The notes under the pieces are model-generated. The model saw nothing but the letters and a program-made list of their open reading frames with translations. It was not told the origin of the DNA and ran no database searches. Below, one piece after another: positions 24,689 through 46,514 of a stretch of DNA of 64,000 nucleotides. Both the position numbers and the translations under genes were made by a program. This stretch comes from Candidatus Bathyarchaeota archaeon (lineage in GTDB: Archaea; Thermoproteota; Bathyarchaeia; JAPDIZ01). Each line of letters begins with the position of its first letter. Within the stretch, counting starts at the first letter, position 1. The stretch spans positions 69,181 through 133,180 of the forward strand of contig JAPDIZ010000003.1 in assembly GCA_029259355.1 (NCBI GenBank), in the 5' to 3' direction.

Positions 24689-25729
24689 ATGATCGACGTG
24701 CACAAAGTAGTCAGAGAAGGTTTGGAGCGAATAGAAAGAGAACTCTCGGAATACCACGAAGCCTTTGAGTCACGCAAAGTCTTAGTGGCTGGCGGAGCTG
24801 GTTTCATAGGGACTTGGGTGTGCAGAACCCTTCTACGGTTGGGAGCTGAAGTGGTGTGTGTAGACAACTTCGCAAGCTCGCTTCCCGAAAACGTTGAGGA
24901 GTTATTGAGCCAACAAGGCTTTACACTGTTAAAGAAAGACGTCTCCAAACCTCTCGCCGCTGAGGAGGTGGGTCGAGTAAACATCGTCTTGCACTTAGCT
25001 AGCCGAGCTGCACCGCCTGAGTTTGACAGCTTTCCCGTAGAAACTCTTCTCGCAAACACCGTGGGAACAGCTAACCTGCTGGAACTGTCGAGAGCTTGTG
25101 ATGCAACCTTCCTGTTCGCCTCATCCTCAGAGGTCTATGGAGACCCCCCGCCAAACTACGTACCCACGCCCGAGATCTATACTGGAAACGTCAACCCCGT
25201 AGGTCCTCGTAGCTGCTACGAAGAAGCCAAGAGGTGTGGTGAAGCTTTTGCAAAAGCCTACGAAAAGCAGTACGGCCTCGATGTGAGAATCGTCAGAATC
25301 TTCAACACCTACGGGCCGTACATGAGGGCTGAGGGCATCTACGGAAGGGTCGTCTCCCGCTTCATCACACAAGCTCTCGCAAACCAACCCATCACTATCT
25401 ACGGCGACGGAAGCCAGTCAAGAAGCTTCACTTACGTCACAGATCTCGTTAACGGGTTGCTGCGAGCAACATGCTGCGATAAAGCTAGGGGTGAGGTCAT
25501 CAACATAGGGAGTGAAAGGGAGATCAAGATCATCGAGCTAGCTCATCTGATAAAGAAGCTGACGAGGAGCAGCTCAGAATTCAAGTTTGAGCAGCCACCA
25601 CCCGACGATCCTCGAAGGAGGTGCCCTGACATATCCAAGGCGAAAAAGCTCCTTAACTGGACTCCAAAGGTAGGCCTCGAAGAAGGCCTAACCTACACAA
25701 TCGAGTGGTTTCGTGACAAGATGAGCTAA
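24689..25729 (+). CDS. UDP-glucuronate decarboxylase-like extended SDR (UXS / ArnA C-terminal domain family)
   Basis: Rossmann VLVAGGAGFIGTWV; catalytic Y-x3-K (YEEAKRCGE); C-terminal RRRCPDISKAKKLLNWTPKV resembles the UXS tail motif. Confidence 0.7.
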   Translation: MIDVHKVVREGLERIERELSEYHEAFESRKVLVAGGAGFIGTWVCRTLLRLGAEVVCVDNFASSLPENVEELLSQQGFTLLKKDVSKPLAAEEVGRVNIVLHLASRAAPPEFDSFPVETLLANTVGTANLLELSRACDATFLFASSSEVYGDPPPNYVPTPEIYTGNVNPVGPRSCYEEAKRCGEAFAKAYEKQYGLDVRIVRIFNTYGPYMRAEGIYGRVVSRFITQALANQPITIYGDGSQSRSFTYVTDLVNGLLRATCCDKARGEVINIGSEREIKIIELAHLIKKLTRSSSEFKFEQPPPDDPRRRCPDISKAKKLLNWTPKVGLEEGLTYTIEWFRDKMS

Positions 25730-25789
25730 TGTTTATTAGAAGCGCGTAATCACGTTTGCCTCGCAAACGCCTAAGGCGTTTCAAGGGGG

Positions 25790-26314
25790 TTGGCGGCGCT
25801 GAGCCGCTTACTTCCTTGGCGCCTAGTTGGGCGTTGGCAGTGCATAGCCTGTGGCGAGTGCTGCCGAATCTTCAGAGTTGGCTTGAACAGCAGCGAGCTG
25901 CAGAGGTTTCTCACGAAGTACCCATATGCGGTTGAGATTGGAGCAGATGGGAGGGCGTATCTGAAGCGTAGGAGAGATGGGAGCTGCGTCTTTCAGATAG
26001 GTAGGCTCTGCGGAATACAGCACGAAAAACCTCTTGCGTGCAAGCTCTGGCCCTTCTACATATACCCAAAGCCCCTCGACGTTGGGAGACCAGAGGACGC
26101 AGCATACCTCTATGGCAACGAGGTGTACTACGTCTACGTACATGCAGTGTGCAACGGGTTGGGAGTGGGGCCGCCCATCGAGTTTGCTATAGCCGAAGCG
26201 ATGAAGATTCGGGAAGGCAAAATGCTTAGGCAGAAGTTTCTCACCAGCCCATCGACACCTACGTCACCGATCGACGTGGTTCGTCGACCAGTTCTCCCCA
26301 GACCTATATGCTAG
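25790..26314 (+). CDS. YkgJ-like cysteine-cluster protein (CxxCxxCC putative Fe-S/Zn domain)
   Basis: CIACGECC near the N-terminus plus additional conserved Cys. Confidence 0.5.
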   Translation: MAALSRLLPWRLVGRWQCIACGECCRIFRVGLNSSELQRFLTKYPYAVEIGADGRAYLKRRRDGSCVFQIGRLCGIQHEKPLACKLWPFYIYPKPLDVGRPEDAAYLYGNEVYYVYVHAVCNGLGVGPPIEFAIAEAMKIREGKMLRQKFLTSPSTPTSPIDVVRRPVLPRPIC

Positions 26315-27233
26315 AAAGCGCTTGCTGATAGGTTTGCTTGATGCTTTCCACAGCCTCCCAAAACAGCTTCTTCTCAACCTCGTCGAGGTCTAGAGCGCAA
26401 GGCTTTATCGACTTCCTGCCAAGCGAGAAAACCCAGTTTGCAAAGCACTTCACTCCATCTACCTCCACGAAGGAGCCTATGGTGAACTCCCTGTTTTCGT
26501 CTAGCAGGAGAGCTTTGGAAATCTCTCTAAAACATCCTACAGGCCCTGTTGAGGTCCCGCCCAGCTTAGCTATGACATCCCTAGCCATGCTGGACACGGC
26601 CTTTCTCGCCTCCTCAATAGAGACTTCGATCCCTTTCTCAGAGAGAAATTTGAAGAGCTTCTTGCCCCTAACCCAAGTTTGCGAAAGCACCGGGACGAGC
26701 TTCTCCCCGTGCTCACCCACGACTAGCGTAGACACCTCGTTTGGCGAAACCCCCAGCTTTTGCGAAATCCAAAGCCTAAGCCTCACCCCATCTAGAAACG
26801 TCCCGCTGCTGATGGCGTAGGGGAAGTTCCCCACCTCCTTCATAAGCCACGCCATAGCATCTACTGGGTTGGTGACGACAACGATGTGAGACTCTTGGTT
26901 AGTTTTCACCAACGACTCAGCGATGTCTGATATCACCTTAGCGTTGACCGCTGCCAAATCTTTGCGATCCATGTGCGGCTTCCTCGGAGAGCCTGCGCAC
27001 ACCAGCACCAAATCAGCTTGATCAAGCTCCTCCAGCGTGCTTAGAGTACGTACCTCGAGGTCTTTGCCACGTGCGCAAGCAGATATCATTAGCTCAAGCT
27101 TCAGCGCTTCAGCCAAGCCCGGTACAACGTCGTAGAGGGTGAGGCAGCCAACGTAGGGCTCGCTAGACATTGCGTGGGCATAGGTTCTTCCGATAAGCCC
27201 TAAGCCGATTACCGCGACGTGATACGTTACCAA
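26304..27233 (-). CDS. mdh: malate/L-lactate dehydrogenase (LDH-like MDH)
   Basis: VAVIGLGLIGRTYAH (NAD-binding), IVVVTNPVD, GEHGE. Confidence 0.8.
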   Translation of the reverse strand: MVTYHVAVIGLGLIGRTYAHAMSSEPYVGCLTLYDVVPGLAEALKLELMISACARGKDLEVRTLSTLEELDQADLVLVCAGSPRKPHMDRKDLAAVNAKVISDIAESLVKTNQESHIVVVTNPVDAMAWLMKEVGNFPYAISSGTFLDGVRLRLWISQKLGVSPNEVSTLVVGEHGEKLVPVLSQTWVRGKKLFKFLSEKGIEVSIEEARKAVSSMARDVIAKLGGTSTGPVGCFREISKALLLDENREFTIGSFVEVDGVKCFANWVFSLGRKSIKPCALDLDEVEKKLFWEAVESIKQTYQQALSSI

Positions 27234-28189
27234 GACAGCTCACCTCTCCTCGCATATCCCTTTACCACGTTAGCGAGGGTGAGGGGGATGTGCTCGTAGC
27301 TATCTACTACTTGAAACACTCCTCCAGATACCTTGGCCATCTCCCCACAAACCTCTCTATCGATAACCTTTCCCCTACGAGTCTGTACGCCAATTACGTG
27401 GAGCTGTGGGTACTTAGCAGCTACTGGCACGGGGTCTTCGGTTGTGTATATGCCGTCTGTTATGAGCACACCCATCTTCTCCTTATGAGAAGCTCGCTGA
27501 AGCTGCTGAAGCCCAGCTCTCAAAGCAGCAGCTATGTCCGTGTACCCAGTTGGTGGAGTTGACAGTATCTCCCTCACAATCGCTCTGACCTCCCTATACT
27601 CCCTCATGTCCTTAATTACCCTAGGCTTGTCGCTGTAAAGGATTACAGCATACTCCTCATCTCGCAAGAGGTAGGCCAAGACCGCTGTGGAGAGAGCTGC
27701 TACGAGTATTTTTGAACCAGACATCGAACCCGAGTGGTCCATGATGAGCGCAACAGACCTCTTCGTCCTCCACCTTTCGTAAGAAACCACATTCTCCAAG
27801 CTTGGCGAAAGAGTTTCGGTTACCCTCTCGATGGTCTCATCCCAGTCGATTAGGTCGTTGCCCGGCTCGTAGGGAACCCTCCTAAGCTTGGGAACAGGTT
27901 TTCCAATTCCTAAGAGCTCAAGCGCCTTTGCTTCTATCCAGTTTATGTATGTGTGCAGCACGAGATCGAGAACTTTGTCGGATAGCCAAGGCTTGACCTT
28001 GTAAAAGACCTCTAGGAAGCGCGTTGGGTGGTCTTCGACGAATCTTTTGGCATACTCTGGGTCGCGGTTTAGGTAGCTAGCTATGGTGTCTGCGCGGAAA
28101 TCGGAGAACTTCCTCAGAGATTCAACGTCCAGCTCCCTGAGCGCGTCAGCGATCATCTTCCTATAGCTCTGCAGCGGGGCTTGGCTCAC
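27227..28189 (-). CDS. von Willebrand factor A (VWA) domain protein
   Basis: MIDAS motif DHSGSMSG (D-x-S-x-S) within a VWA-like fold; 7-nt overlap with mdh start. Confidence 0.75.
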   Translation of the reverse strand: MSQAPLQSYRKMIADALRELDVESLRKFSDFRADTIASYLNRDPEYAKRFVEDHPTRFLEVFYKVKPWLSDKVLDLVLHTYINWIEAKALELLGIGKPVPKLRRVPYEPGNDLIDWDETIERVTETLSPSLENVVSYERWRTKRSVALIMDHSGSMSGSKILVAALSTAVLAYLLRDEEYAVILYSDKPRVIKDMREYREVRAIVREILSTPPTGYTDIAAALRAGLQQLQRASHKEKMGVLITDGIYTTEDPVPVAAKYPQLHVIGVQTRRGKVIDREVCGEMAKVSGGVFQVVDSYEHIPLTLANVVKGYARRGELSW

Positions 28190-28193
28190 CCAC

Positions 28194-29186
28194 TCAACGC
28201 CTTCTTCCTCCTCTTCGAGGCGAGGGGGTTCCAGCCCCCTTTGCTCGAAAAAAGGGCTCAGAGGATGGTTCTTGAGCCACAGCTCCTCCTCTAAGCGCCA
28301 TCGAAACTATCTCTGACACGATCTGCTCCCTAGTCTTGGTCACGTCGTCTCTTACGCGGATTTTCTTGGTAAACGCCATCAGCGCAGCGTTTAGCAGAAT
28401 GCTCTCATTTCTCCAATCCCCTCCCTCGCTACACAGCTCGCCGAGCACGATGCCCATGTGTATCCCAGCTCTGAGAGAAACCCCAGAAACCAAGTCAGGG
28501 TGCCTATAGGTTAGGTCTACGCACGCTTCGATTAGGTCAAGCAGCTCATCGTTTTTGGCTATATGGTCGTATCCCCTCGCCAAGAGCTCCCTCTTGATTA
28601 TCTCCCTCTCCTCTAAGGGGTCTTGCCTCCTCATCGGAACCCAAACAAATCTATCTATAGCGGCTTCGGGCAGGGGATAAGTTCCCGCATACTCCATGGG
28701 GTTAGCTGTGACGATTACCGAGAAGCCCTTCTTTGCCCTAACCCCACCGAGCTTGGGTATGTGTATCACCCTCTCGTCCATAGCTGTCAACAGGACATTC
28801 CACGTATCGGAGGGTAGCCTAGTCCCCTCGTTTATGAACAAGATACCTCCATCAAGCATAGCCCTCGTCAGCGGGCCTGGGACAAAGGTGTCCCACGAAA
28901 AGCCTGGCTTTATCCCAAGCTTCTCAGCTTCTTCAGCGTTCATCAAGACGAGGGAGGGGTCAAACCACCCAACGATCTTGGAGGGCGTGATGTCGGGGGC
29001 GCCGTCAACGCGGTAGAATGGCCTACCCAGCGCCTTAGCTATCTCCATGCAGATCTTGGTCTTTCCCCTGCCCACGTCGCCCTCTATCAAAACCGGGGTC
29101 TCAGACCTCAGCGCAGCCAGTATGAGCCTAACCTCAACTCTCCGCCCAACAACGGCTTTCTCGAGCTTCTTGAGCACTTCGTCCAT
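28194..29186 (-). CDS. AAA+ ATPase, MoxR/ChlI-like
   Basis: Walker A GDVGRGKT; Walker B-like ILFINEGTR; immediately upstream of the VWA gene. Confidence 0.7.
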   Translation of the reverse strand: MDEVLKKLEKAVVGRRVEVRLILAALRSETPVLIEGDVGRGKTKICMEIAKALGRPFYRVDGAPDITPSKIVGWFDPSLVLMNAEEAEKLGIKPGFSWDTFVPGPLTRAMLDGGILFINEGTRLPSDTWNVLLTAMDERVIHIPKLGGVRAKKGFSVIVTANPMEYAGTYPLPEAAIDRFVWVPMRRQDPLEEREIIKRELLARGYDHIAKNDELLDLIEACVDLTYRHPDLVSGVSLRAGIHMGIVLGELCSEGGDWRNESILLNAALMAFTKKIRVRDDVTKTREQIVSEIVSMALRGGAVAQEPSSEPFFRAKGAGTPSPRRGGRRR

Positions 29187-29223
29187 CGCAGCAGATAATT
29201 AGAAAGCTCCTCGATAAAAATAG

Positions 29224-30093: not shown

Positions 30094-30145
30094 GGCAACG
30101 CTTTAAGCCAAAGAAACCTTCTGTGCATAGGCAGGAGGTAGCTGT

Positions 30146-30703: not shown

Positions 30704-30704
30704 A

Positions 30705-31847
30705 TTGAGATGCTTAGGTGTCTGTGGAGAAGGGGGTCGTTGCTTCGTGGGATATGAAGTTTCTAAGGCTTTGGTAACTGGCGGAGCAGGCTTCGTAGGC
30801 GTAAACTACGCCAAACACCTCCTTGATCGAGGGGTTGAGGTCGTTGTATACGACAACTTTGGGAGAGGCCCTGGGGGAAAGATAAACTGCGAGTGGCTTA
30901 GTAAGCACCCCAACGCCAACAAGCTAGAGGTTGTTGAAGGAGACGTGAGAGACTTCGAGTCCTTGAAGAAAGCTGCCTCTGGATGTGATCTCATCCTCCA
31001 CGCTGCTGCGCAAGTATCGGTTCCGCTGTCCATGGAGGAGCCCAAGGTAGACTTCGAGATCAACGTGTTGGGAACCTTTAACGTGCTCGAGGTTGCGCGA
31101 AGCCTAAACACAGACCCAGCCGTGATCTACACCTCGACGAACAAAGTCTACGGAATCCCTGAGTACGAGCTGGTGGAACTGGAGACGAGATACGACTTCA
31201 CTGGCGACCTGCTTGGGGTTGATGAGAAAGCTCAGCTCAAAGCTGAGGAGCCCTATGGAGCAAGCAAAGCCGTTGGAGACCTCTACGTGAAGGCGTATCA
31301 CAACATCTATGGCCTAAAAACCGTCTCCTTCAGGTGCTCCTGCATGTATGGACCGAGGCAGTGGGGCGTTGAAGAGCAGGGATGGGTTGCGTGGTTCTGC
31401 ACCGCCTTCGCCCTAGGATACCCCATCACCATCTTCGGCAACGGAAAGCAGGTTAGAGACCTCCTATACATAAGCGACGTAGTAGAGGCTTTCGACCTCG
31501 CACTCGACAACATCGACAAAGTAGCTGGTTTAGGCATCAACTTAGGTGGTGGAAAAGAAAATGCGGTTTCGCTTCTAGAGGTCATCGCATACCTCGAGCA
31601 GCTCTCTGGCAGAAAAGTCGATATCCAATTCACCGACTGGCGACCATTTGACAACAAGTGCTACTACACCGACATCACTCTCGTTAAGAAGCTGCTGGGG
31701 TGGATTCCAAAGGTTTCTTGGCGCGACGGAGTGAGAATGACTTACGAATGGGTTAAGGAAAACCTCGAGGTTATTGAAGAGGTGTATCGCTCCAAAGAGG
31801 GAAGAAGCTTAAGACCTATGGTGGAAGCCGCAAAGAAACATGGCTGA
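30705..31847 (+). CDS. NAD-dependent nucleotide-sugar epimerase/dehydratase (extended SDR) with Cys-rich N-terminal extension
   Basis: TTG start; ALVTGGAGFVGVNYAKHLL; Y-x3-K (YGASKAVGD); N-terminal MRCLGVCGEGGRC leader precedes the Rossmann motif. Confidence 0.75.
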   Translation: MRCLGVCGEGGRCFVGYEVSKALVTGGAGFVGVNYAKHLLDRGVEVVVYDNFGRGPGGKINCEWLSKHPNANKLEVVEGDVRDFESLKKAASGCDLILHAAAQVSVPLSMEEPKVDFEINVLGTFNVLEVARSLNTDPAVIYTSTNKVYGIPEYELVELETRYDFTGDLLGVDEKAQLKAEEPYGASKAVGDLYVKAYHNIYGLKTVSFRCSCMYGPRQWGVEEQGWVAWFCTAFALGYPITIFGNGKQVRDLLYISDVVEAFDLALDNIDKVAGLGINLGGGKENAVSLLEVIAYLEQLSGRKVDIQFTDWRPFDNKCYYTDITLVKKLLGWIPKVSWRDGVRMTYEWVKENLEVIEEVYRSKEGRSLRPMVEAAKKHG

Positions 31848-31993: not shown

Positions 31994-32827
31994 GTGAGAG
32001 TGCAGGGAGCTATGCAGAAAGTCCTAGAAGAAGCTGCTGCTCAACCTTGCTACGGAACTCCATACAGATATTTAATCAGACTTCATCTACACGCCTTCGT
32101 AGAGGAACTCCTGAAGAAAACTCCCAGAGAGCTTCTAATTCTAGACGTAGGCTGTGGAAAAGGCGCGTACTCCCGCGTATTCAGCAACTTCCAAACACTC
32201 GGTAAGTACGTAGGCGGAGATATCGAAGCGTTTCGAGACTCTTGGAAGCAAGCTAAGAGGCGTTTTGAGGGAAAGTTCTCAGCTGACTACATCTGCTTTG
32301 ACGCAAACCACCTACCTCTCAAGGACGACGCATTTGACGCTGTGCTGTGCATAGCAGCTCTTGAGCACATAAAAGACGATGAGTCAGCGGTAGAGGAGAT
32401 CGAAAGGGTGTTGAGGAAGGAGGGGGTAGCTTATGTATGGGTTCCAAGCAAGGGCACATGGTTGTTTGATTTAGGCAAGCACGGCTACCACTTCTACTCT
32501 CTCAAAGATATCGTCAAGCTCTTTGAGGGAAGAAGACTCACCATCAGCAAAGTCATGCCAACAGGAGGTACACTTTGCTTCATCACCACCTGCCTAACTA
32601 TTTGGCTCAAACTCGTCATCTCAGCGATCGCGTTGGCTCTGGGGATAAGCAAAGATAGGAGGAAGTACTTGGCAGATGGCGTCGATCGCCTAAGGATTAA
32701 GTTAGGAGAGGCTTACGACAAAGCCCTCAAGTATTGCGTGAGGAAAGATTTTGCTGCTGGCAACAAGCTCCCAGGCGGTTACTCCATAATCATTTACAAG
32801 CGTTTTCCTTCTAGAGAAATGGTGTAG
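31994..32827 (+). CDS. class I SAM-dependent methyltransferase
   Basis: Motif I LILDVGCGKGAYS. Confidence 0.7.
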   Translation: MRVQGAMQKVLEEAAAQPCYGTPYRYLIRLHLHAFVEELLKKTPRELLILDVGCGKGAYSRVFSNFQTLGKYVGGDIEAFRDSWKQAKRRFEGKFSADYICFDANHLPLKDDAFDAVLCIAALEHIKDDESAVEEIERVLRKEGVAYVWVPSKGTWLFDLGKHGYHFYSLKDIVKLFEGRRLTISKVMPTGGTLCFITTCLTIWLKLVISAIALALGISKDRRKYLADGVDRLRIKLGEAYDKALKYCVRKDFAAGNKLPGGYSIIIYKRFPSREMV

Positions 32828-34011: not shown

Positions 34012-34623
34012 TTAGGAACAGGGTTTTCTCGCTACCACCACATACCCCGTCGTCCAAGCTTCGCTACAGCCTCTATCTAGCCTGCTCAAGAGGTGTGCAA
34101 AGAGCCACAGAGGATACTTTATGAGCGGTGGGAAGCGCTCCCCCCACACGTGTATGAGAGAACCAACCGATGTAAACAGCCCACCTTGAGACTCGATGAG
34201 GTCCACGCTGAAGCCCAGTTCCTCAAGAATCCTCCTCACCCCCCTAGGGGTTATCCTCCAATAATCCTTCTCATCATGTAGTGGGTAAAGAAACGGCGTA
34301 GACAATATCAGGACGCCATCATTGACCAAAACCCTCCTGACCTCTTCCAACGCCTCGCCCGGCTTTTCCAAATGCTCCAAGACCTCGGTGCATATCACAG
34401 CATTGACGGACCTCCCCCTGATCGGAAGGTGATGCGCGTCCGCGACCACATCCACCTTATGGCTCGACTTATCGATGTCGAGCCTGATAGACTTGACTTG
34501 AGGGAGTTGAGAGTATGGAGACGCACCCGCGCCTACGTCGAGAACGACTCCCTTGATTCCGCGGCATAGCTTAAGCATAGCTTGATCCAAGAGCTTGCGC
34601 CGAGGCGTTCTGCAGATAGCCAC
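34012..34623 (-). CDS. class I SAM-dependent methyltransferase
   Basis: GVVLDVGAGASPY motif I; 203 aa. Confidence 0.7.
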   Translation of the reverse strand: MAICRTPRRKLLDQAMLKLCRGIKGVVLDVGAGASPYSQLPQVKSIRLDIDKSSHKVDVVADAHHLPIRGRSVNAVICTEVLEHLEKPGEALEEVRRVLVNDGVLILSTPFLYPLHDEKDYWRITPRGVRRILEELGFSVDLIESQGGLFTSVGSLIHVWGERFPPLIKYPLWLFAHLLSRLDRGCSEAWTTGYVVVARKPCS

Positions 34624-38065: not shown

Positions 38066-39019
38066 ATGCGGCGCATCACCATAGCTATCCTCGTCGTGCT
38101 GCTTTCTGCCCTAGTCATCGTTTTGCTGAAGCCCATGGGAGAAGCGGTTAGCAAGCCAGAGCTTGAGTGGAGCAGCGACGTCAAGCCTGGCTCAGGGCCT
38201 GGTCAGCCCCCGCCCGACATGCCTCCCGACGCTGATGGGCCGTGGAATCACCGCATACTGATTGCGTGCTCATCCGATGGGCTATCTTGGCAGAAAAAGT
38301 ACGTAATTTTAGCTGACCAAGCATCTGTTCCAGACGCCATCATCGACAAAGAGGGGAACATACGCGTATACTATTGCGACTACTTCAACGGCGGGATCAC
38401 CGTAGCCATATCCAAAGACGGCGAGAACTGGATCTATAAGCGAGTAAAGGGCTTATCCCCGGAGTGGGCTGACCCAGACGTAGTCATCCTACCCGACGGG
38501 AGGTATAGGCTATACGCTTCATACTTCCCCTTGGTGGGGAGCCAAGACCGCATAGTATCCGCTATCTCAGAAGACGGCATCAACTTCATACCCGAGGAGG
38601 GAAACCGCTATCATGAACCCGGAACTCTGCTAGCCGACCCCGATGTCTTCTGGGCTGGAGACCACTGGGTCATGTTCGTCGATACAGGCGGAGCCTTGAT
38701 CATGCTAACCTCAGAGGATGGGCTCAACTTCACGAAGATTGGGGAATTGGAGCTTGAAGTTGATTCTGGAGGTGTATCTTGCACAATCCCCGTCGAAGGT
38801 GGGTACAGGATATACTTCCACCGCGGCAAGCCTCTTCAAATCTACTCCGCCTTTACATCAGACCTCAAAAACTGGTCAGAGCCAGTGCTCGTGCTTGAGG
38901 CTGGCGAACCCGGGTCACTCGACGAGTTTGGAACCGCGGATCCTGCGGTTGTCAAGCTTCCACAAGGGGGATACCTGATGTTCTACAAAACCTGGATAAA
39001 CCCGCCAAAAAGCCTCTAG
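38066..39019 (+). CDS. secreted BNR/Asp-box repeat beta-propeller protein (putative glycosidase-like)
   Basis: Signal peptide MRRITIAILVVLLSALVIVLL; four Asp-box-like repeats (SSDGLSW, SKDGENW, SEDGINF, SEDGLNF). Confidence 0.6.
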   Translation: MRRITIAILVVLLSALVIVLLKPMGEAVSKPELEWSSDVKPGSGPGQPPPDMPPDADGPWNHRILIACSSDGLSWQKKYVILADQASVPDAIIDKEGNIRVYYCDYFNGGITVAISKDGENWIYKRVKGLSPEWADPDVVILPDGRYRLYASYFPLVGSQDRIVSAISEDGINFIPEEGNRYHEPGTLLADPDVFWAGDHWVMFVDTGGALIMLTSEDGLNFTKIGELELEVDSGGVSCTIPVEGGYRIYFHRGKPLQIYSAFTSDLKNWSEPVLVLEAGEPGSLDEFGTADPAVVKLPQGGYLMFYKTWINPPKSL

Positions 39020-39024: not shown

Positions 39025-40014
39025 CTACGATTTTACAAAAGCAAGCTTTGGGAAGCGCCTCCCAAAGAAGAAGCCGATTAGGTGAGAAGCCGTCACGACT
39101 GGGTAGTAGACAAGCGATGCCAACCAAACCAAGGGGTTCTTCGTACGGATCATTGCGCGCAAGAAATAGGCTAAGTCTACGATCAGGGCTGCAGAGAGAA
39201 ACGCGTAGACCAAGGTTATGGCAGTCTCTACTCTCAGCAGAGCCCATAGAAGAAGAGAGAGCGAAATCATCAAGAGATAGGCGATGAATAGATTGCTCAG
39301 CAACCGCTTAGCTCTCCACGCGCCATATAGGGAGTCGCAGTAGCCTAAGCCAAGACCTTGCCTAAGCTCCTTCCTCGCTATAGCGCGCAACCCATTCTCC
39401 ACTTCATGAAAAACCACTGCATTAGGCTGGTAGACTATTTGACAACCAAGAGCCTTGAGGATTCTGTGAGCTATTTCTTGGTCTTCACATGCGACCAGCT
39501 CCTCGTTGAAGCCTCCAACAGCCTCTACGACGAACCTTCTGTAGGCGCAGTTTACCGTTGAGAAGTCTTGCCCAGGTTTCATCACTCGCCTCTGCTGCTT
39601 TGCCTTAGCCAAAAACCCCAATTCCCTTACCTTTGAGAAGATGCCTCTAGATTTCATCGGAAGCTGCCTACCTACGACGCCACAAACCTCCTTCTCCTCA
39701 AACTCCGACAACAAGCTCTCAAGCCATCGGGAGTCGGCTACGCAGTCTGCGCTGATGAAGCAAACATACTCTCCTTTCGCACTCGAAACCCCGACGTTTC
39801 TAGCGTGCCCAAAGGTGTGTTTTCGCTCAATAACTACGCGCGCACCCATTTCCTCAGCAATCTCCTTAGTCCTATCTACCGACTCACCATCGACAACGAT
39901 TATCTCATAGGATTCTCGGGGAAGCGTCTGCTTTAGAAGCGAGTCGATGCAAGCGCCTATGCTATCCTCTTCGTTTCTGGCTATGATGATCACAGATGCT
40001 AGCAGTTTCTCCAA
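39025..40014 (-). CDS. GT2 glycosyltransferase with C-terminal transmembrane segments
   Basis: SVIIIARNEEDSI...IIVVDGESVDRT (GT2 nucleotide-binding region); hydrophobic C-terminus. Confidence 0.75.
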   Translation of the reverse strand: MEKLLASVIIIARNEEDSIGACIDSLLKQTLPRESYEIIVVDGESVDRTKEIAEEMGARVVIERKHTFGHARNVGVSSAKGEYVCFISADCVADSRWLESLLSEFEEKEVCGVVGRQLPMKSRGIFSKVRELGFLAKAKQQRRVMKPGQDFSTVNCAYRRFVVEAVGGFNEELVACEDQEIAHRILKALGCQIVYQPNAVVFHEVENGLRAIARKELRQGLGLGYCDSLYGAWRAKRLLSNLFIAYLLMISLSLLLWALLRVETAITLVYAFLSAALIVDLAYFLRAMIRTKNPLVWLASLVYYPVVTASHLIGFFFGRRFPKLAFVKS

Positions 40015-40090: not shown

Positions 40091-41230
40091 ATGATCGATG
40101 TTTGCTTGGTTACGCTTAAGTACCCACCGCTGCTGGGTGGAGATGCAAGCCACACTCAGCAACTAGCCAAAGAACTCTCGAGGAGAGGGTACAGAGTAGC
40201 TGTAGTAACGATCAAGCCGAGAAAGAAGCCTTCTTCTCAGTACGAGGACGGCGTTTGGGTGGAGAGAGTTGGGGTCGGTAGCGAGACCACTGAGCTTGAG
40301 CGGTTTTGCCTCAAGAGAGCGCTGTTCATCGTCTGCGCCTTTGCAGCGCTTGCCAAACTCTGGGCTAGAGCGGGCATCCGAACAATACACTCCCACGGCT
40401 GGGACCCCGGCTTGGTATGTGGACTGTTCTCGCTCATCACAAGAGCTAAGCTAGTCCACACCCTTCACGGCATTCCCCGCGTCAGTGGGTTGCTTGCTCT
40501 CTGGGAAAGGCTTGTCCTAAAGATCTGCTCTGCAGCTAGAGCTTTCCTCATCGCGCTTAACCCAGAAGACGCTGAGCTAGCAGCGTCTATGGGGGTTCCG
40601 AGGAATCGAATAAGGACTATACCCAACGCTATCGACGTAGAGAAGTTGTCGAGAGGAGATGCGGGGGCTTTTAGATCGAGGTATGGGGTGAGGAAAGGGG
40701 AGGCTGTAGCTATCTTTGTGGGAAGACTCCACGCTCAAAAAGGCGTCGATACCCTAATCCGAGCAGCACGCCTTCTGCAAGACTACCCCATAAAGTTCTT
40801 CGTCATCGGATCAGGACACGAAGCCCGCAGATACCTCGAGGAAGCTAGGGGCTTGAGCAACCTCCGCTTTTTGGGAGAGGTCCCTGAGGATGTTTTGAGC
40901 CAAGCCTACGCAGCTTGCGACATCTTCGTGCTACCATCCATCTTTGAGGGAATGCCCTACGCGCTCATGGAGGCTATGGCGCTGGGGAAGGCGGTGGTGG
41001 CGAGTGACATTGAGGGTGTGAAAACCCTAGTCAAAGACGGAGAGACTGGTCTTCTATTTCCCCCACGCGACCCCCAAGCTTTAGCAGAGAGGATTAAGAT
41101 CCTCTGCGAAAACCCAGAGCTTAGAAGGAAGTTGGGGAAAAATGCCCGCGAACTCGTGCTCTCCCGGTACAGCTGGGAATCGGTATTGAACAAGCTCCTC
41201 AGGCTCTACGGAGTGATTCCCTTTGGCTAA
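40091..41230 (+). CDS. GT4 glycosyltransferase (GT-B, group 1)
   Basis: FVLPSIFEGMPYALMEAMALGKAVVASDIEG. Confidence 0.8.
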   Translation: MIDVCLVTLKYPPLLGGDASHTQQLAKELSRRGYRVAVVTIKPRKKPSSQYEDGVWVERVGVGSETTELERFCLKRALFIVCAFAALAKLWARAGIRTIHSHGWDPGLVCGLFSLITRAKLVHTLHGIPRVSGLLALWERLVLKICSAARAFLIALNPEDAELAASMGVPRNRIRTIPNAIDVEKLSRGDAGAFRSRYGVRKGEAVAIFVGRLHAQKGVDTLIRAARLLQDYPIKFFVIGSGHEARRYLEEARGLSNLRFLGEVPEDVLSQAYAACDIFVLPSIFEGMPYALMEAMALGKAVVASDIEGVKTLVKDGETGLLFPPRDPQALAERIKILCENPELRRKLGKNARELVLSRYSWESVLNKLLRLYGVIPFG

Positions 41231-42389
41231 GCTATCCATCGCGCAAGCAGCTTCTTACTACCCACCCGACTTTGGAGGAATAGAATCTTACGTCTACAAC
41301 ATATCCATCCGAATGGCTAGGAAGGGACACCGGGTTGTGGTGCTAACCTCAGAGCACCCAAGATGTTCTCAAGTCGAAGTTGTTGAAGGTGTTGAGGTGA
41401 GGAGGCTTAGAGTCGCTAAGAAGTTCTTCGGCTTTCCCCTAATGCCCAGCTTACCCACCCAGATAGCCTCCGAAGACTTCGACGTAGTTCACGGACACAT
41501 CAACGCCCCTCTAGTCGTAGACCTAGCCGCACTAGCCTCTAGGGCTTCGCACACTCCTCTGGTAGTGACCTATCACGCAGACCTGCTCCCCGAAGAAGTA
41601 GCTGAGGGAAGCATAGCGTTGGCCAAAGCTCTCTCCGCAGTTTACGACACATCGATCAAGAGGTGGGTTCTGAGACAAGCTAGAGCCATAATCGCTACCA
41701 CACCCCTCTATGCATCAACCTCACCCTACCTCAGAAAGTTTCTGCGAAAAGTTAGGATAGCGCCTGTTGGGGTGGACGTAGAGCACTTTAAGCCCATGCG
41801 GGAGGAGGGGGTAAGGGAGGACCTAGGCATCCCCAAAGATCTGAGGGTTGTTCTCTTCGTTGGAAGAATGGTCGCCTACAAAGCTTTGGACATTCTCTTA
41901 GCGGCTTTCGCAAAGCTAGCCAAGGCGGTGAATGACGTAGCATTGGTTTTGGTGGGGGAAGGGCCTAGGAAAAGTTGGGCTTCTGCGCTTGCGAGAGAGC
42001 TAAGCGTTAAGAACAGAGTTTTCGTGGTGGGGAATGTGCCTCTTGAGACGCTTCCCAAGGTATATGCTATGTCCGAGCTTGTGGTAGTTCCTTCTAGGTC
42101 TAGGGCTGAGGCGTTTAGCGTCACAGCACTCGAAGCGATGGCTTGTGGAAAACCCGTAGTTGCGACTCGCGTAGGTGGAGTGCCCTACGTGGTAGTCGAT
42201 GGCGTAACAGGCGTCTTAGTTCCTCCGAAAAATGCGGAGGCACTTTGCGAGGCTATGCTTAGCTTGCTAAGCAACGAGGACGAGGCGCGTAGGCTGGGAG
42301 AAGCTGGTAGGAGAAGAGCTGTGGAGCTGTTTAGCTGGGATAGGGTGGTAAACCTAATTGAGGATGTCTACCTATCGGTAGCTGTGTGA
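41223..42389 (+). CDS. GT4 glycosyltransferase (GT-B, group 1)
   Basis: VVVPSRSRAEAFSVTALEAMACGKPVVATRVGG; overlaps upstream GT4 by 8 nt. Confidence 0.8.
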   Translation: MAKLSIAQAASYYPPDFGGIESYVYNISIRMARKGHRVVVLTSEHPRCSQVEVVEGVEVRRLRVAKKFFGFPLMPSLPTQIASEDFDVVHGHINAPLVVDLAALASRASHTPLVVTYHADLLPEEVAEGSIALAKALSAVYDTSIKRWVLRQARAIIATTPLYASTSPYLRKFLRKVRIAPVGVDVEHFKPMREEGVREDLGIPKDLRVVLFVGRMVAYKALDILLAAFAKLAKAVNDVALVLVGEGPRKSWASALARELSVKNRVFVVGNVPLETLPKVYAMSELVVVPSRSRAEAFSVTALEAMACGKPVVATRVGGVPYVVVDGVTGVLVPPKNAEALCEAMLSLLSNEDEARRLGEAGRRRAVELFSWDRVVNLIEDVYLSVAV

Positions 42390-42401
42390 GGCGGTGGTTT
42401 A

Positions 42402-42743
42402 TTGGAGGCGTACTACCTAGCCTTAGCAGCCTTTGGCGCGTTGATGGCTTACCTAACCTTTAGGGAGTATCGAAGGCGGAGGATTAGGCTAAGCAGCTTA
42501 ATCCTCTGGGAGATGCTATGGGTTTCGATCACGGTTTTCTGTCTATACCCTCCGCTGATAACCATAGCCATCGAAGCGCTGAACGTCGCTTTGCCAGTCC
42601 ACCTCTTCTCCGTTGCATCCATTCTGGTTCTCTTCGTGTTGGTGTATAGGCTATACGCAAAGCTTGAGGAGCTCAACAAAAACCTCATAAGGCTTGCGAG
42701 AGAGGTTGCGCTACGCCAGCTCGATGAGGAGCAAAAGAGCTAG
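42402..42743 (+). CDS. small membrane protein, DUF2304-like (GT2-associated)
   Basis: 113 aa, about 3 TM helices followed by a short helical tail; 3' end overlaps the convergent GT2. Confidence 0.45.
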   Translation: MEAYYLALAAFGALMAYLTFREYRRRRIRLSSLILWEMLWVSITVFCLYPPLITIAIEALNVALPVHLFSVASILVLFVLVYRLYAKLEELNKNLIRLAREVALRQLDEEQKS

Positions 42744-43414
42744 AGCAGGTGTCTCTTGACGAAGTCAACGAATATCTTAACCCCATCGAACACCCCAGTT
42801 CCCTTCTTCATCGAATACTCGCTGTATATGGGCGTAACCGGCACCTCAGCTACCCTACATCCAAGCCTAATAGCTTGGGCGATCATGTCAGAAGCCCAAG
42901 CAAATCCCGTTGGAAACTCCTCTAGTGCATGGAGGAGGCGTCGAGACAAGGCTCTGAAACCAGACTGGGAGTCGGAGAGGGAGTATCTACAAACCGCTGA
43001 AGTTATCGATGTGAGGAGCTTGTTGCCCAATCGCTTTACAAAGGGTATTGAAGAAGTGTCACCAGCGAACCTAGACCCAATCACCAAGTCAGCCTCCCCC
43101 CTCTTCACGGGCTCAGCCACAGCTGGTATCTCGTCGGGGTTGTGCTGTCCATCAGCGTCTATCATAACAACTACCTCGGGGTCGAACCTCTTCGCAGCCT
43201 CAAGCCCAGTGTATATGGCAGCGCCTACGCCCAAGTTGAAGGGATGAGAGAGCACTAGCGCACCAGCGTCTGCAGCTTTTTCAGCTGTTCTATCCACGCT
43301 CCCATCGTCAATAACCAAGACGATAGGGCAGTGCTTTAGAGCTCCAGCTACAACATCGCCGACTGTCGCCTCCTCGTTGTACGCAGGTATTACGCAGACC
43401 ATCGATGTCCTCAA
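42740..43414 (-). CDS. GT2 glycosyltransferase, polyprenyl-phosphate hexose synthase-like
   Basis: VCVIPAYNEEATV, VLVIDDGSVDRT, MIDADGQHNPDE. Confidence 0.8.
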   Translation of the reverse strand: MRTSMVCVIPAYNEEATVGDVVAGALKHCPIVLVIDDGSVDRTAEKAADAGALVLSHPFNLGVGAAIYTGLEAAKRFDPEVVVMIDADGQHNPDEIPAVAEPVKRGEADLVIGSRFAGDTSSIPFVKRLGNKLLTSITSAVCRYSLSDSQSGFRALSRRLLHALEEFPTGFAWASDMIAQAIRLGCRVAEVPVTPIYSEYSMKKGTGVFDGVKIFVDFVKRHLL

Positions 43415-43421
43415 GGCTCGC

Positions 43422-45086
43422 CTATCCCCTAACTACGTAGTATGAGCCAATACCCGTATCTGTTATGCGGTTACCCCTAGGCAGGTAAGCCAATATGGGC
43501 ACGTGAGACTCTACCAAAAAGTATCCCCTTCTCCACACCTCGGCTTTGATCACAAGCGTGCTTCCCTCTTCCCAGGGCTGAAGCCTGTACATACACCTAC
43601 ACTTCCCAAACTTCCCTGTGTAGAGCGTGTTTATCCAGTCTCCGCTTTTTACGACGTGAACTTCAGCATCCTGCATAGCCATGCCATGCTGATCTACGTA
43701 ACACCTAATCTCCACGTACTCTCTGTTGCACATTCGAGCAGAGACTTGTACGCCGTAGCAATTTCCAACCGTGTCACGCTTCATAACCCTAATCTCTCTA
43801 GCAACGTATAGAGCTCCCGCTTTGGGGTTGTTGACTCCCAGCTTTTGAAGCAGCAGCATATCCCAGTTGGTGGATTTCGACCAAGAGCTACAGACAGATT
43901 GCGCTGAAAGGTTGCGTAAGATCCTCGTCGCCACCACGTCTTGCTTGAGGTAGAAGCTATAGTTGGACACGTACTCGACGGAGTATGAAACCAGCTCGAC
44001 CCCTAGCACCGCTACCACCAAAAAGGATACCACGAGTGGGGGAACGAGCTTAGCTCTGTTTGGCAGACGCACGCCCCTCTCGTAGAGAAAAGGCCAAAAA
44101 ACCGTAGTCGAAGCAAACAGCGCTATCGGAAGCGAAGCATAACACGCAAGCCTTTCTGGGCTGCCAAAGGTGTAGATCAGCCTAACGTGCATGAGCGAAA
44201 GAGGTATGAGAGCCCAGAGAGCGAGGAAGACCAAAGCCTGCTCGTTTAGCTGCCTTCTCCTCGCAAGAGTAGGGACTGCGAAGAGCGAAGCAACCATCAA
44301 AGCAGCTAAAGACAGTCCGAAAAGGTGGACGTATGGAAAGTAGAGCACGATCGAGGGCTTAGCCCAGACTACTGGAAAGGTGTAGAATCGTACCAAGGCT
44401 TTGGCACAAGCTTCGTAAAGAACTAGGAACAAGGCGAATGCTAATAGGATGGCGGCAAACCCAGCCCTATCTCTCCTCAAAAGCTTGATCGCTGCAGCAT
44501 ACGCCAACACCACTGCGAAGGTGAAGAATAGCGTAGGTGAGTGGGTTATGAGCATTCCTACGATCAAGAGAGCGTAGATAGCCCAAGCTCTTTTCGTAGA
44601 CTCTGACATCGCTATCATCAGAGCAGTAGCTGACAGCATATAGTAAGAGAGTATGAAGGGGTAGAGGCCACAAGCCAGTGCCTCAACCTCGCGAGGCGAT
44701 AGAGCGAGTAACAGAGCCGCTAACCCACCGACTCCATGAGAGCGAGCGAATCTCCTGCCTAGAGCGTAAGCGGGGATAACGAGCAGAGCCGAGGAAACCG
44801 AAGCAAACGCCTTGGTTGCCTCAAAGATTTGGGAGAGGTCTCCGCCTCCCCAAATGGCGGTCGAGAGGCAGAGGAGGATGTGCAGAGCTGGTGGATACCT
44901 CTGCGAGATAGAGAGCTGCTCAGCCGAGAGGCTAGACATACCAAGCATTAGGAAAACGCGCTGTAGGTGAATAGCTGGATCCTCTCCAAGCGGTGGAAGC
45001 GATAGGCAGAGCAAACGCACTCGAATGAAGAGGGCGAGGAGGAAGATCAGCGAGAGCGTGAAGATGGCTTTGCTGGAGCCTCGCAA
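43422..45086 (-). CDS. polytopic membrane protein with C-terminal soluble domain (possible GT-C-like)
   Basis: 554 aa; N-terminal two-thirds strongly hydrophobic; C-terminal roughly 170 aa Cys-containing soluble domain. Confidence 0.4.
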   Translation of the reverse strand: MRGSSKAIFTLSLIFLLALFIRVRLLCLSLPPLGEDPAIHLQRVFLMLGMSSLSAEQLSISQRYPPALHILLCLSTAIWGGGDLSQIFEATKAFASVSSALLVIPAYALGRRFARSHGVGGLAALLLALSPREVEALACGLYPFILSYYMLSATALMIAMSESTKRAWAIYALLIVGMLITHSPTLFFTFAVVLAYAAAIKLLRRDRAGFAAILLAFALFLVLYEACAKALVRFYTFPVVWAKPSIVLYFPYVHLFGLSLAALMVASLFAVPTLARRRQLNEQALVFLALWALIPLSLMHVRLIYTFGSPERLACYASLPIALFASTTVFWPFLYERGVRLPNRAKLVPPLVVSFLVVAVLGVELVSYSVEYVSNYSFYLKQDVVATRILRNLSAQSVCSSWSKSTNWDMLLLQKLGVNNPKAGALYVAREIRVMKRDTVGNCYGVQVSARMCNREYVEIRCYVDQHGMAMQDAEVHVVKSGDWINTLYTGKFGKCRCMYRLQPWEEGSTLVIKAEVWRRGYFLVESHVPILAYLPRGNRITDTGIGSYYVVRG

Positions 45087-45098
45087 CTCCTCCCCCAG

Positions 45099-46514
45099 CT
45101 AGCTACGCTGAAAAGCTTGTGGAGGCCTACCCAACCCCCTCCAGATAAAGCCCAGCTCTATCGCGTGATTTGGGTCTACTATTCCTCTAGCGTCTACTAG
45201 GACGCAGGGCTTCTTAACCAGCGACCAAACTCTTTTCCAGTCCACTTCTTGAAAAGCTCTGTGCTCAGTAGCGACCACCACAGCATCAGCTCCCTCCACC
45301 GCTTCATACACAGACGAAGCAGTCTCTGCTGGAGCCTCCTTCACATACGGGTCAAATGCTACGACTCTAGCTCCTTCTCCGACTAGCCTCTCTATCAGCT
45401 TTAGAGACTGGCTTTCGCGCGTGTCGCTCGTCTCTCCCTTAAAGGCTAAGCCGAGCACAGCTACTCGCGACTTCCTCACCTCTTTACCAGCTTCCAAAAG
45501 CCCGTCGCGAAGCAAATCCAACACGTGGAGGTACATCGAGCTGTTTAAGTTCCTAGCTGAGACTATTAGGCTGGTGTCTATCCCCAGCTTTTCACCCACA
45601 GCAGCTAAGAAAAGCGGGTCTTTGGGTAAGCAGCTCCCACCAACCAGCCCTGGGTTCAATATGTTTACAGAGGAGTAGCCGCGGGACAAGGTGTTGGCTG
45701 CGGAAATCACCTTTCTCACATCTGCGCCGTAAGTTTCGCAGAAGAGGGCTATGAGGTTTCCGAGAGCTATCGACACGTCGATCCAGAGGTTGTCAGCAAG
45801 CTTAACCAGCTCAGCTGCCCTAGGGTTTCCCACGTCGATGGTTTCTAAGCCTAGGCATCTGAAGAAGGCGACGACGCAGTCTCTACTCCTTGGGCCGACT
45901 GCTCCCACGACTACAGGAAGCTTTGCCAACTCCTCCAAAGCCCTACCCTCTGACAAGCGCTCTGGGCAAAACGCTAGGGCAAAGTCTTGCTCAGCCTTCA
46001 GCCCGCTTCCATGCTCTAAGGCTGGCTTAAGCAGCTCCTCCGTAGTTCCCGGAGGAACCGTTGACTTCAGCACAACAACCTGACCAGCTCTGAGGCGGCT
46101 AGATATAGCCTCTGCAGCGCTTCTCAGATACCTTAGCTCCGCGCTTCCATCCACCCCTAGCGGAGTACCAACCGTTATCACTATCACGTTGGAAGATTCC
46201 ACGGCGTAGGCTGAGTCTGTGGTAGCCTCTAACATCTTAGACGCTATGCATGTTTTCAGAGCTTCCTCGAGCCCAGGCTCAAAGAAGGGGGTTTCTCCTC
46301 TCCTAACCTTCTCAACGACTTCTTCGCTCACATCTACTCCAACAACCCTTATCCCCCTTTGAGCCATGAAGGCTGAGAGGCAGAGCCCGACGTAGCCAAG
46401 CCCGAAAACAGATGCGACGAGTTTACCCGATTTGTGCCATCGATCGATCTCGTCGGGCGTGGGTATGGGCATAGAGACACCACACAACAATTGCTCAGGC
46501 TTCTTCATACCCAC
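45099..46514 (-). CDS. UDP-glucose 6-dehydrogenase / nucleotide-sugar dehydrogenase
   Basis: N-terminal NAD-binding VFGLGYVGLCLSAF; central region with catalytic Cys (GGSCLPKD). Confidence 0.85.
   Translation of the reverse strand: MGMKKPEQLLCGVSMPIPTPDEIDRWHKSGKLVASVFGLGYVGLCLSAFMAQRGIRVVGVDVSEEVVEKVRRGETPFFEPGLEEALKTCIASKMLEATTDSAYAVESSNVIVITVGTPLGVDGSAELRYLRSAAEAISSRLRAGQVVVLKSTVPPGTTEELLKPALEHGSGLKAEQDFALAFCPERLSEGRALEELAKLPVVVGAVGPRSRDCVVAFFRCLGLETIDVGNPRAAELVKLADNLWIDVSIALGNLIALFCETYGADVRKVISAANTLSRGYSSVNILNPGLVGGSCLPKDPLFLAAVGEKLGIDTSLIVSARNLNSSMYLHVLDLLRDGLLEAGKEVRKSRVAVLGLAFKGETSDTRESQSLKLIERLVGEGARVVAFDPYVKEAPAETASSVYEAVEGADAVVVATEHRAFQEVDWKRVWSLVKKPCVLVDARGIVDPNHAIELGFIWRGLGRPPQAFQRS

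Follow-up and report, generated by a model that had tools for sequence, protein, structure and literature searches.

A 64-kb stretch of DNA from a Candidatus Bathyarchaeota archaeon (contig JAPDIZ010000003.1; the whole stretch of 64,000 nucleotides is hereafter called the window) encodes a UXS-type UDP-glucuronate decarboxylase, or UDP-xylose synthase (UXS; 24689-25729, plus strand, 346 amino acids, ATG start), which, judging from its sequence, very probably makes UDP-xylose. The gene lies in what is likely a large surface-glycan biosynthesis island, of the N-glycan or S-layer glycan type, that spans about 10-46.5 kb, with further sugar genes at 54-64 kb. An initial annotation of this DNA had grouped the decarboxylase with a UDP-glucose dehydrogenase (45099-46514) and a DegT aminotransferase (32864-33997), and had proposed that they serve either UDP-xylose synthesis or an Arn-like amino-pentose route. 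The three open reading frames (ORFs) are present and match their families strongly, far beyond chance. It is the UDP-xylose alternative that the evidence favours for the decarboxylase, and UDP-xylose synthesis is, on the whole, a probable explanation of the island.

The decarboxylase belongs to the short-chain dehydrogenases/reductases (SDRs) of the extended type. It has Epimerase (185.6 bits) and GDP_Man_Dehyd domains, and the NAD-binding motif 'GGAGFIG' is found at residues 35-41. When the protein is compared with all structures in PDB, the closest is human UXS1 (hUXS1), which scores about 291-293 bits (E 2.6e-86) and is 46% identical over 323 amino acids. The next structure, Pal, reaches 157 bits, solved 4,6-dehydratases and 4-epimerases score no higher than that, and ArnA scores about 70 bits. 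Thus, in the sequence-based discrimination of UXS from ArnA-type decarboxylases that the initial annotation had proposed as a check (about 293 versus about 70 bits), the window protein falls on the UXS side. Its homologues number in the thousands, and UDP-glucuronate decarboxylase is the recurring name of those at about 52-61% identity, among them proteins from Hydrothermarchaeota and Helarchaeota metagenome-assembled genomes (MAGs).

The active site is that of a UXS. The SDR triad of hUXS1 consists of Thr118, Tyr147, and Lys151 (PMC3438964). In the alignment to PDB entry 2B69, these residues are matched by Ser, Tyr, and Lys in the window protein (the Tyr and Lys within 'CYEEAKR'), the only change being Thr118 to Ser. 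Ser119, Glu120, and Arg277 set UXS apart, and UDP-glucuronate 4-epimerases have Ser and Thr at the last two positions (PMC3438964). The Ser119 and Glu120 equivalents are found in 'FASSSEVYGDP' and the Arg277 equivalent is the third Arg of 'DDPRRRCPDI'. In window numbering, residues S147, E148, Y177, K181, and R311 are invariant across 18 aligned members of the subfamily. The RRRCPDISKAK-type C-terminal tail pointed out in the initial annotation is present as 'DDPRRRCPDISKAKKLL', and it is the consensus of the whole subfamily in the same 18-member alignment. Every sequence-level feature of UXS (EC 4.1.1.35) that we tested is therefore found in the predicted protein. The initial annotation had named a 4-epimerase or 4,6-dehydratase, recognizable by active-site comparison, as the finding that would speak against a decarboxylase. 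The top NCBIfam model by score is in fact dTDP-glucose 4,6-dehydratase, and no dedicated UXS model is among the matches, but the score of 156.7 bits is far under the cutoff of 365. The protein has S-S-E instead of the dehydratase T-D-E and keeps the Glu120 and Arg277 equivalents; taken together with the structure scores given above, this makes a dehydratase or an epimerase very improbable.

The genes around UXS are consistent with a local supply of its substrate. The phosphohexomutase of the archaeal GlmM type (14691-16064, plus strand; four PGM_PMM domains), which passes its model TIGR03990 Arch_GlmM (554.5 bits, cutoff 439) and would supply sugar 1-phosphate, and a GalU-type UTP-glucose-1-phosphate uridylyltransferase (23758-24633, minus strand, called start at about 24579; NTP_transferase domain), which is transcribed divergently from UXS, would together provide UDP-glucose. 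UDP-glucose would then be oxidized to UDP-glucuronate, probably by the protein encoded at 45099-46514, the sole nucleotide-sugar dehydrogenase in the window. UXS would oxidize UDP-glucuronate at C4 with tightly bound NAD+, decarboxylate it, reduce the resulting 4-keto-pentose, and release UDP-xylose, which may be used by one of the many GT4 or GT2 glycosyltransferases of the island. The DegT aminotransferase would stand off this route, in a separate branch together with a TyvE-like SDR and two methyltransferases. In this scheme the substrates, the products, and the UDP-xylose-using transferase are what we infer; family placement, active-site residues, and neighbourhood statistics are read directly from the sequences.

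For the neighbourhood statistics, 80 metagenomic UXS loci were collected, of which 39 had 6 kb or more of DNA flanking them and were analysed. A nucleotide-sugar dehydrogenase is present in 14 of them, within 100 bp of UXS in seven, and all 14 are canonical UDP-glucose dehydrogenases (UGDHs). A GalU-like gene is found in five of the 39 loci; in two of the loci collected (L022 and L025), the GalU orthologue (51-54% identity) is separated from UXS by 39-62 bp, a closeness also found in the window. A Hydrothermarchaeales MAG carries a tight operon of dehydrogenase, GalU-like gene, and UXS. It follows that the unit leading from glucose-1-phosphate through UDP-glucose and UDP-glucuronate to UDP-xylose is a recurrent one. 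Just three of the 39 loci have a DegT gene of any kind; it is 33-38% identical and in each case lies over 5 kb from UXS, so there is no recurrent link between the UXS family and an aminotransferase.

The dehydrogenase (45099-46514, minus strand, 471 amino acids as the longest ORF) has all three UDPG_MGDP_dh domains and the catalytic motifs 'GGSCLPKD', 'VKLADN', and 'CPERL'. The name UDP-glucose dehydrogenase in the initial annotation remains plausible as to the glucose, but the protein is not a canonical UGDH: it is an NDP-hexose 6-dehydrogenase of a CalS8-like clade. It passes only the generic model TIGR03026 (398.7 bits, cutoff 189.8), and no curated equivalog model in NCBIfam is reached; the scores are 307 bits for the archaeal UDP-ManNAc dehydrogenase NF040825 (cutoff 750), 247.3 for TuaD (cutoff 700), and 242.7 for AglM (cutoff 670). 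In PDB, CalS8 scores about 300-306 bits at 42% identity, the UDP-ManNAc dehydrogenase of P. horikoshii 254, and the UGDH of P. islandicum 207. Immediately ahead of the catalytic Cys, the window enzyme, CalS8, and four UGDH-type enzymes have Ser (GGSC), whereas the three N-acetylhexosamine (HexNAc) enzymes compared, namely the ManNAc, GalNAcA, and GlcNAc dehydrogenases, have His (GGHC); none of 120 homologues of the window enzyme has His. The loop insertion that precedes GGSC in CalS8 ('ANTLxxGxSxVN..PG.(x)GGSC') is also found in the window enzyme, and a neighbour-joining tree places it as sister to CalS8, apart from the HexNAc dehydrogenases.

Relatives of the dehydrogenase at 51-54% identity have small sugar-1-phosphate nucleotidylyltransferases as neighbours, directly or at a distance of up to about 1 kb, and are never beside a WecB 2-epimerase. 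One locus (L012), for example, has a dehydrogenase of 54% identity whose neighbours are a GalU orthologue, likewise 54% identical, an SDR of UXS-like type that shows the motifs TSE and RRAPDI, and a PGM/PMM gene. WecB, a canonical UGDH, and a second nucleotide-sugar dehydrogenase are all missing from the 64-kb window itself. A DUF354 protein (11511-12602) was considered as a WecB-like 2-epimerase and rejected, as neither PDB nor NCBIfam supports it. The GGSC motif, the CalS8-like loop and tree position, the nucleotidylyltransferase neighbours, and the lack of WecB favour glucose over HexNAc as the substrate, and the enzyme probably oxidizes an NDP-glucose. Its longest ORF overlaps, at the 5' ends (46432-46514), a divergent CobW/HypB-like GTPase ORF (46432-47253, plus strand); at least one of the two starts is thus over-extended. 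Because of this overlap and because a 99%-identical database copy has 462 amino acids, the true start of the dehydrogenase is probably at least nine codons downstream.

A route to UDP-N-acetylxylosamine (UDP-XylNAc), as in Bacillus cereus, would combine a UDP-GlcNAc 6-dehydrogenase with a UDP-GlcNAcA decarboxylase of the UXNAcS type. The top specific NCBIfam models of the dehydrogenase are indeed of the HexNAc type, several of its relatives are named UDP-ManNAcA dehydrogenase by JGI, and the window contains the GlmM-type mutase and GlmU-like genes. But the archaeal UDP-ManNAc dehydrogenase score is far under its cutoff, the dehydrogenase is only about 30% identical to the B. cereus UDP-GlcNAc dehydrogenase as against 42% to CalS8, and both its GGSC motif and its place in the tree separate it from HexNAc enzymes. 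On the side of the SDR, B. cereus UXNAcS (sequence taken from the supplement of a paper) is 38.5% identical to the window protein at 169 bits and 37.7% identical to hUXS1. UXNAcS is thus more distant from the window SDR than hUXS1 is, and the window SDR groups with true UXS; UXS is moreover paired with GalU, not with GlmU. We hold this route to be highly improbable. A more serious question is who supplies UDP-glucuronate, and it is here that several observations weigh against the proposed scheme. None of the 14 UXS-linked dehydrogenases in the 39 loci belongs to the CalS8-like clade of the window enzyme, and the canonical clade (L017 and P. yayanosii) is only 33-38% identical to it; a canonical UGDH elsewhere in the genome may therefore be the real supplier. 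The window dehydrogenase is encoded 19 kb from UXS, in a tight minus-strand operon with a GT-C-like protein and a GT2 (gaps of 7-12 nt), and in two unrelated metagenome loci (L011, L020) members of its clade have a TyvE-like SDR, not UXS, as their partner. CalS8 is described, in its PDB title among others, as a TDP-glucose enzyme, so the nucleotide may not be UDP. Both the GalU-type protein (top model TIGR01099 galU, 211.8 bits, cutoff 326.8) and the dehydrogenase fall under their NCBIfam equivalog cutoffs. Finally, release of some UDP-4-keto-pentose by a UXS-type enzyme is not readable from sequence (PMC7725333). The clade of the UXS-linked dehydrogenases and its distance from that of the window enzyme, the operon, and the pairing with TyvE-like SDRs agree with an alternative in which the dehydrogenase does not feed UXS. 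Its hexuronate would be turned into dolichyl-phosphate-uronate by its own GT2 and transferred by the GT-C on the outside of the cell, or it would be used by a TyvE-like SDR, e.g. to form mannuronate, while UXS would still make UDP-xylose from UDP-glucuronate provided by a canonical UGDH beyond the window. Against it stand the lack of a canonical UGDH within 64 kb, the presence of the CalS8 clade beside UXS-like SDRs in L012 and L019, and the consideration that a single UDP-glucuronate pool could serve both uses. We regard this alternative as rather unlikely, and our judgement is evenly divided on whether the dehydrogenase is the physiological UDP-glucuronate supplier of UXS.

The Arn-like or calicheamicin-like alternative supposes that an NDP-4-keto-pentose is released by the decarboxylase, aminated at C4 by DegT, and transferred via a polyprenyl-phosphate GT2 and a GT-C, in the manner of ArnA/B/C/T or CalS8/S9/S13. 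Several points speak for it. Closest to the dehydrogenase is CalS8, with which the calicheamicin aminopentose pathway begins; a bacterial locus (L019) has the gene order DegT, CalS8-like dehydrogenase, UXS-like SDR, so an aminopentose-type unit of this kind exists in nature; a GT2 of the PpgS/ArnC type and a GT-C are present; and the partition between xylose and 4-keto-xylose is, as said above, beyond what sequence tells. Other observations speak against it. The initial annotation was right to assign this protein (32864-33997, plus strand, 377 amino acids, start placed three codons later by gene callers) to the DegT family, with 437 bits for DegT_DnrJ_EryC1, but a joint pathway with the decarboxylase does not fit an enzyme of the C-3 (FdtB/QdtB-type) sugar aminotransferase clade. 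Among PDB structures it scores 483 bits to 7B0D, 370 to QdtB, 357 to DesV, and about 284-290 to WlaRG-like and WbpE enzymes, as against 233 to perosamine synthases, 190 to ArnB, and 92 to CalS13. ArnB ranks under more than 20 other structures, and the ArnB model NF008658 gives 249.6 bits (cutoff 631). The window DegT is only 31% identical to that of L019. Its orthologues at 55-61% identity are found in Thermococcus, Pyrococcus, Archaeoglobus, Methanocaldococcus, Thermofilum, and Bathyarchaeia. In P. yayanosii (L015) and in L016, the orthologue (59-60% identity) directly follows an FdtA-type 3,4-ketoisomerase and a hexapeptide acetyltransferase, which is the layout for synthesis of a 3-acetamido-3,6-dideoxyhexose. 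In the window, 7 kb with unrelated genes separates DegT from UXS, and the survey gave no linkage of the two families. The decarboxylase in turn has no formyltransferase domain in its 346 amino acids by domain and NCBIfam scans, and it reaches only 82 bits with the ArnA model NF005998 (cutoff 777) and 87 bits with the 4-keto-pentose/xylose synthase model NF008872 (cutoff 294). An amino-pentose route is accordingly quite improbable, and DegT is, in our estimate, very probably unrelated to the pentose route.

With UDP-xylose thus kept as the probable pentose product, the DegT branch may be considered by itself. We infer that it makes an amino hexose derivative, possibly methylated. Upstream of DegT, a CDP-tyvelose 2-epimerase-like extended SDR (30705-31847, plus strand, called start at about 30747) matches PDB entries 9RL0 (270 bits) and 1ORR (261 bits), the next structure scoring 142, and has STNK in place of the 4,6-dehydratase TDE. 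A SAM-dependent methyltransferase (31994-32827, plus strand; Methyltransf_11/25) lies between this SDR and DegT, and a second one (34012-34623, minus strand; Methyltransf_11) is convergent with DegT. The arrangement of TyvE-like SDR, methyltransferase, and DegT is kept in a relative of 79% identity. It was not found to recur in L014-L016, although a methyltransferase also follows DegT in L014. The 64-kb window has no FdtA cupin, no GFO/WbpB-type oxidase, and no orthologue of an RmlB-type 4,6-dehydratase. At a distance of 30 kb from DegT is the gene for a hexapeptide-repeat acetyltransferase of the NeuD/PglB/VioB-like kind (3030-3686, plus strand); it shares 36-39% identity with the FdtC-like acetyltransferases encoded ahead of the DegT orthologues of L015 and L016. 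A reading of the dehydrogenase and DegT as part of a UDP-GlcNAc3NAcA pathway (WbpA/B/E/D) was rejected, for a WbpB-type oxidoreductase is missing from the window and the dehydrogenase does not belong with the HexNAc enzymes.

TyvE-like SDRs also accompany the dehydrogenase clade elsewhere. In L011 (8942-11380) and L020 (6249-8730), SDRs 48-49% identical to the protein at 30705-31847 are encoded directly upstream of CalS8-clade dehydrogenases. The pairing may mark an undescribed NDP-uronate branch, leading e.g. to mannuronate or to a keto-uronate that is aminated by a C-3 DegT. The two TyvE-like SDRs of the window (30705-31847 and 58171-59136) are not beside its dehydrogenase. The second of them, the third extended SDR of the window, is encoded at 58081-59136 on the plus strand. 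Its Rossmann motif 'KVVITGGLGFIGFNF' lies in frame but 5' of GTG at 58171, which is the earliest canonical start codon; ahead of 'KVVITGGLGFIGFNF' the reading frame offers neither ATG nor GTG nor TTG, and an ATG close by is in another frame. Either the gene has a non-canonical start (CTG or ATA), or it is damaged or frameshifted.

The initial annotation had pointed to polyprenyl-phosphate GT2 enzymes and GT-C proteins near the three genes. Two GT2s of the polyprenyl-phosphate type are indeed found, at 42740-43414 and 16059-16808, and both score below the cutoffs of their models. The first is a small polyprenyl-phosphate sugar synthase-type GT2 (PpgS/AglJ-like; minus strand; Glycos_transf_2 domain) with 172 bits for its top model, PpgS NF058614 (cutoff 370), followed by AglJ with 120 bits. 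It is convergent with a gene for a small DUF2304 membrane protein (42402-42743, plus strand; PF10066, 62 bits), which is consistent with 2-4 transmembrane (TM) helices. On its other side, its operon continues with a highly divergent GT-C-like membrane protein of 554 amino acids (43422-45086, minus strand; about eight TM helices and 'LGEDP' after TM1) and then the dehydrogenase. The second GT2 (minus strand; ArnC 88 bits, dolichyl-phosphate (Dol-P) hexose transferase 84.5 bits) belongs to another lipid-carrier module. Between this Dol-P-sugar-type GT2 and a GT-C-like protein of 746 amino acids (17887-20127, plus strand; 'PPGDDE' after TM1) lie genes for a DUF1616 protein (16811-17332, minus strand; DUF1616 domain) and a 167-aa coiled-coil membrane protein (17329-17832, minus strand), about 7 kb from UXS. 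In a Helarchaeota MAG (L018, 3621-4693), UXS is followed by a 183-aa small protein and then by a DUF1616 protein, 31% identical to that of the window.

As to the GT-C proteins, they are polytopic and carry an acidic motif after TM1, but a direct Pfam match is missing: no GT-C family matches the large membrane ORFs even at a permissive E of 10. The 554-aa protein is a near-orphan, with 13 matches at E <= 1e-3 among 1.84 billion representative proteins. Four of the 13 carry PMT_2 above threshold in the aligned region, and the 746-aa protein can be aligned with the 554-aa one across TM1 and the acidic loop (E 1e-5). Through this transitive homology, the GT-C label is plausible for both. The C-terminal region of the 554-aa protein, about 150 residues, is predicted to be beta-rich and extracytoplasmic; an AlphaFold2 model from an 11-sequence alignment (pLDDT 50.6) was too poor for use. 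It is conceivable, though improbable, that the CalS8-clade dehydrogenase, the near-orphan GT-C, the PpgS-like GT2, and DUF2304 make up a dedicated archaeal lipid-carrier module. Such a module would charge dolichyl phosphate with a hexuronate, or with the pentose that UXS derives from it, for attachment to surface glycans at the outer face of the membrane, and an extracytoplasmic acidic or pentose decoration in the Arn/PpgS style would be undescribed in Archaea.

The island as a whole contains two GlmU-like nucleotidyltransferases, one AglH-type GT4, and one phosphohexomutase of the archaeal GlmM type. It also has three GT2s, seven GT4s, and three each of large polytopic membrane proteins and extended SDRs. 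The span from 24689 to 46514 is not a single cluster. Unrelated genes separate UXS from DegT, namely those for a CxxCxxCC protein, a malate/lactate dehydrogenase, a VWA-domain protein, a MoxR-type AAA ATPase, and a protein without assigned function; the malate/lactate dehydrogenase, VWA, and MoxR genes form a minus-strand block (26304-29186) that parts the UXS sub-cluster from the DegT sub-cluster. This block is kept in the relative of 79% identity, whose gene order is identical to that of the window and says nothing on functional linkage. Three GT4 glycosyltransferases (20124-21353, minus; 21530-22612, plus; 22601-23755, minus; Glycos_transf_1 and Glyco_transf_4, E 1e-36 to 1e-40) adjoin GalU and UXS. 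Beyond DegT, there follow GT4s at 34715-36028, 40091-41230, and 41223-42389 (all plus strand) and a GT2 at 39025-40014 (minus strand), all assigned by Pfam, and a 12-TM protein (36025-37944, minus strand) found by hydropathy analysis. A secreted 317-aa protein with a signal anchor (38066-39019, plus strand), with weak hints of a BNR/GH32-like beta-propeller (E 0.02-0.07), sits embedded amid these glycosyltransferases. No tRNA genes are found in the 64-kb window. Identical copies of the proteins come from metagenome assemblies only, and a scan of the GTDB species set gave no near relative, its matches being bacterial SDRs at 27-33% identity; ThiN, Arch_GlmM, and DUF1616 mark the source as archaeal.

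Further sugar and sulfur genes are found toward the right end of the window. The region 54430-60587 could be a second sugar-modification cluster, possibly involving C-methylation. It contains a 494-aa ORF with no Pfam match (54430-55914), a second AglH/MraY-type GT4 (55973-56986), and a B12-binding radical-SAM enzyme (59133-60587) that adjoins the TyvE-like SDR; a methyltransferase gene (53577-54452) lies at its left edge. An ATP-sulfurylase and a type I phosphodiesterase/NPP (61399-63962, minus strand) occupy the right end. In the glycosylation island of P. yayanosii (L015, 10076-16098), a phosphodiesterase with 53% identity to that of the window adjoins an APS kinase and a TauE exporter. The sulfurylase and phosphodiesterase genes suggest that the glycan contains sulfated sugars.

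What the window adds is in large part a familiar pathway. The UDP-xylose route is, very likely as far as its UXS is concerned, a routine known pathway and not a new amino-pentose route, and UXS homologues are already common and routinely annotated in archaeal MAGs. The initial annotation had held that xylose would be uncommon in archaeal glycans. This is partly right, but the N-glycan heptasaccharide of P. furiosus carries two xyloses (PMC4476749), and UXS homologues occur in many archaeal MAGs. Our literature search found no study that assigns enzymes for the P. furiosus N-glycan xylose. If the assignment is true, a mainstream, eukaryote-like UXS from an uncultured archaeon would offer a candidate for the genes behind xylose in the surface glycans of archaea. 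Its practical value is modest and lies in an improved annotation of an archaeal glycosylation island, together with a caution that a DegT gene and a decarboxylase no more than 20 kb apart need not mean an amino-pentose pathway. Less ordinary are the operon of a CalS8-type dehydrogenase with a near-orphan GT-C and a PpgS-like GT2, and the recurrence of TyvE-like SDRs with that dehydrogenase clade.

Among characterized systems, human UXS1 (PDB 2B69/4GLL) is the one that the window decarboxylase resembles most. The two share the extended SDR fold, identity over the whole catalytic core, S/T-S-E, YxxxK, and the Arg277 position. The window protein differs in being archaeal and soluble, with a 28-residue N-terminal extension, no membrane anchor, and Ser for Thr118. 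Another archaeal SDR proposed to make UDP-xylose is Mth373, a divergent protein of Methanothermobacter thermautotrophicus that was assigned as UXS by crystallography (PDB 8W3U/9AR1; PMC12820599). It scores only about 83-85 bits against the window protein and has an SAE motif with an extra Tyr73 and Arg75, whereas the window protein belongs to the mainstream type of UXS.

The ArnA/ArnB/ArnC/ArnT system, which modifies lipid A with UDP-Ara4N, is similar in that a decarboxylase, a DegT, a polyprenyl-phosphate GT2, and a GT-C are encoded within one 22 kb of the window. It differs in the formyltransferase domain, which the window protein lacks, in the scores for the ArnA, ArnB, and ArnC models, which are far under cutoff, in the C-3 type of the aminotransferase, and in the dispersal of the genes. 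CalS8 (PDB 4XR9), which acts with CalS9 and CalS13 in calicheamicin aminopentose synthesis, is the top solved match of the dehydrogenase, shares its loop, and belongs to a sister clade, but 58% of the dehydrogenase positions differ and a CalS13-type aminotransferase is unmatched. The FdtA/B/C and QdtA/B/C systems for dTDP-3-acetamido-3,6-dideoxyhexose are close to the window in their aminotransferase, through the QdtB score and the orthologues in P. yayanosii and L016. They differ in that the window DegT has a TyvE-like SDR and methyltransferases as neighbours, in place of an FdtA cupin and an RmlB-type dehydratase, and that the sole similar acetyltransferase is 30 kb off.

For transfer on a lipid carrier, haloarchaea have systems of the AglD/AglS type, with a Dol-P-sugar and an outer-face transferase. 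The mycobacterial system, which consists of PpgS (Rv3631) together with Rv3632 (DUF2304) and the GT-C Rv3779, is similar to the window genes, which comprise a small GT2 with PpgS as its top model, a DUF2304 membrane protein encoded next to it, and a GT-C-like protein. The window operon differs from the mycobacterial system in that its GT2 is well short of the PpgS cutoff, its GT-C is a near-orphan, and it includes a nucleotide-sugar dehydrogenase.

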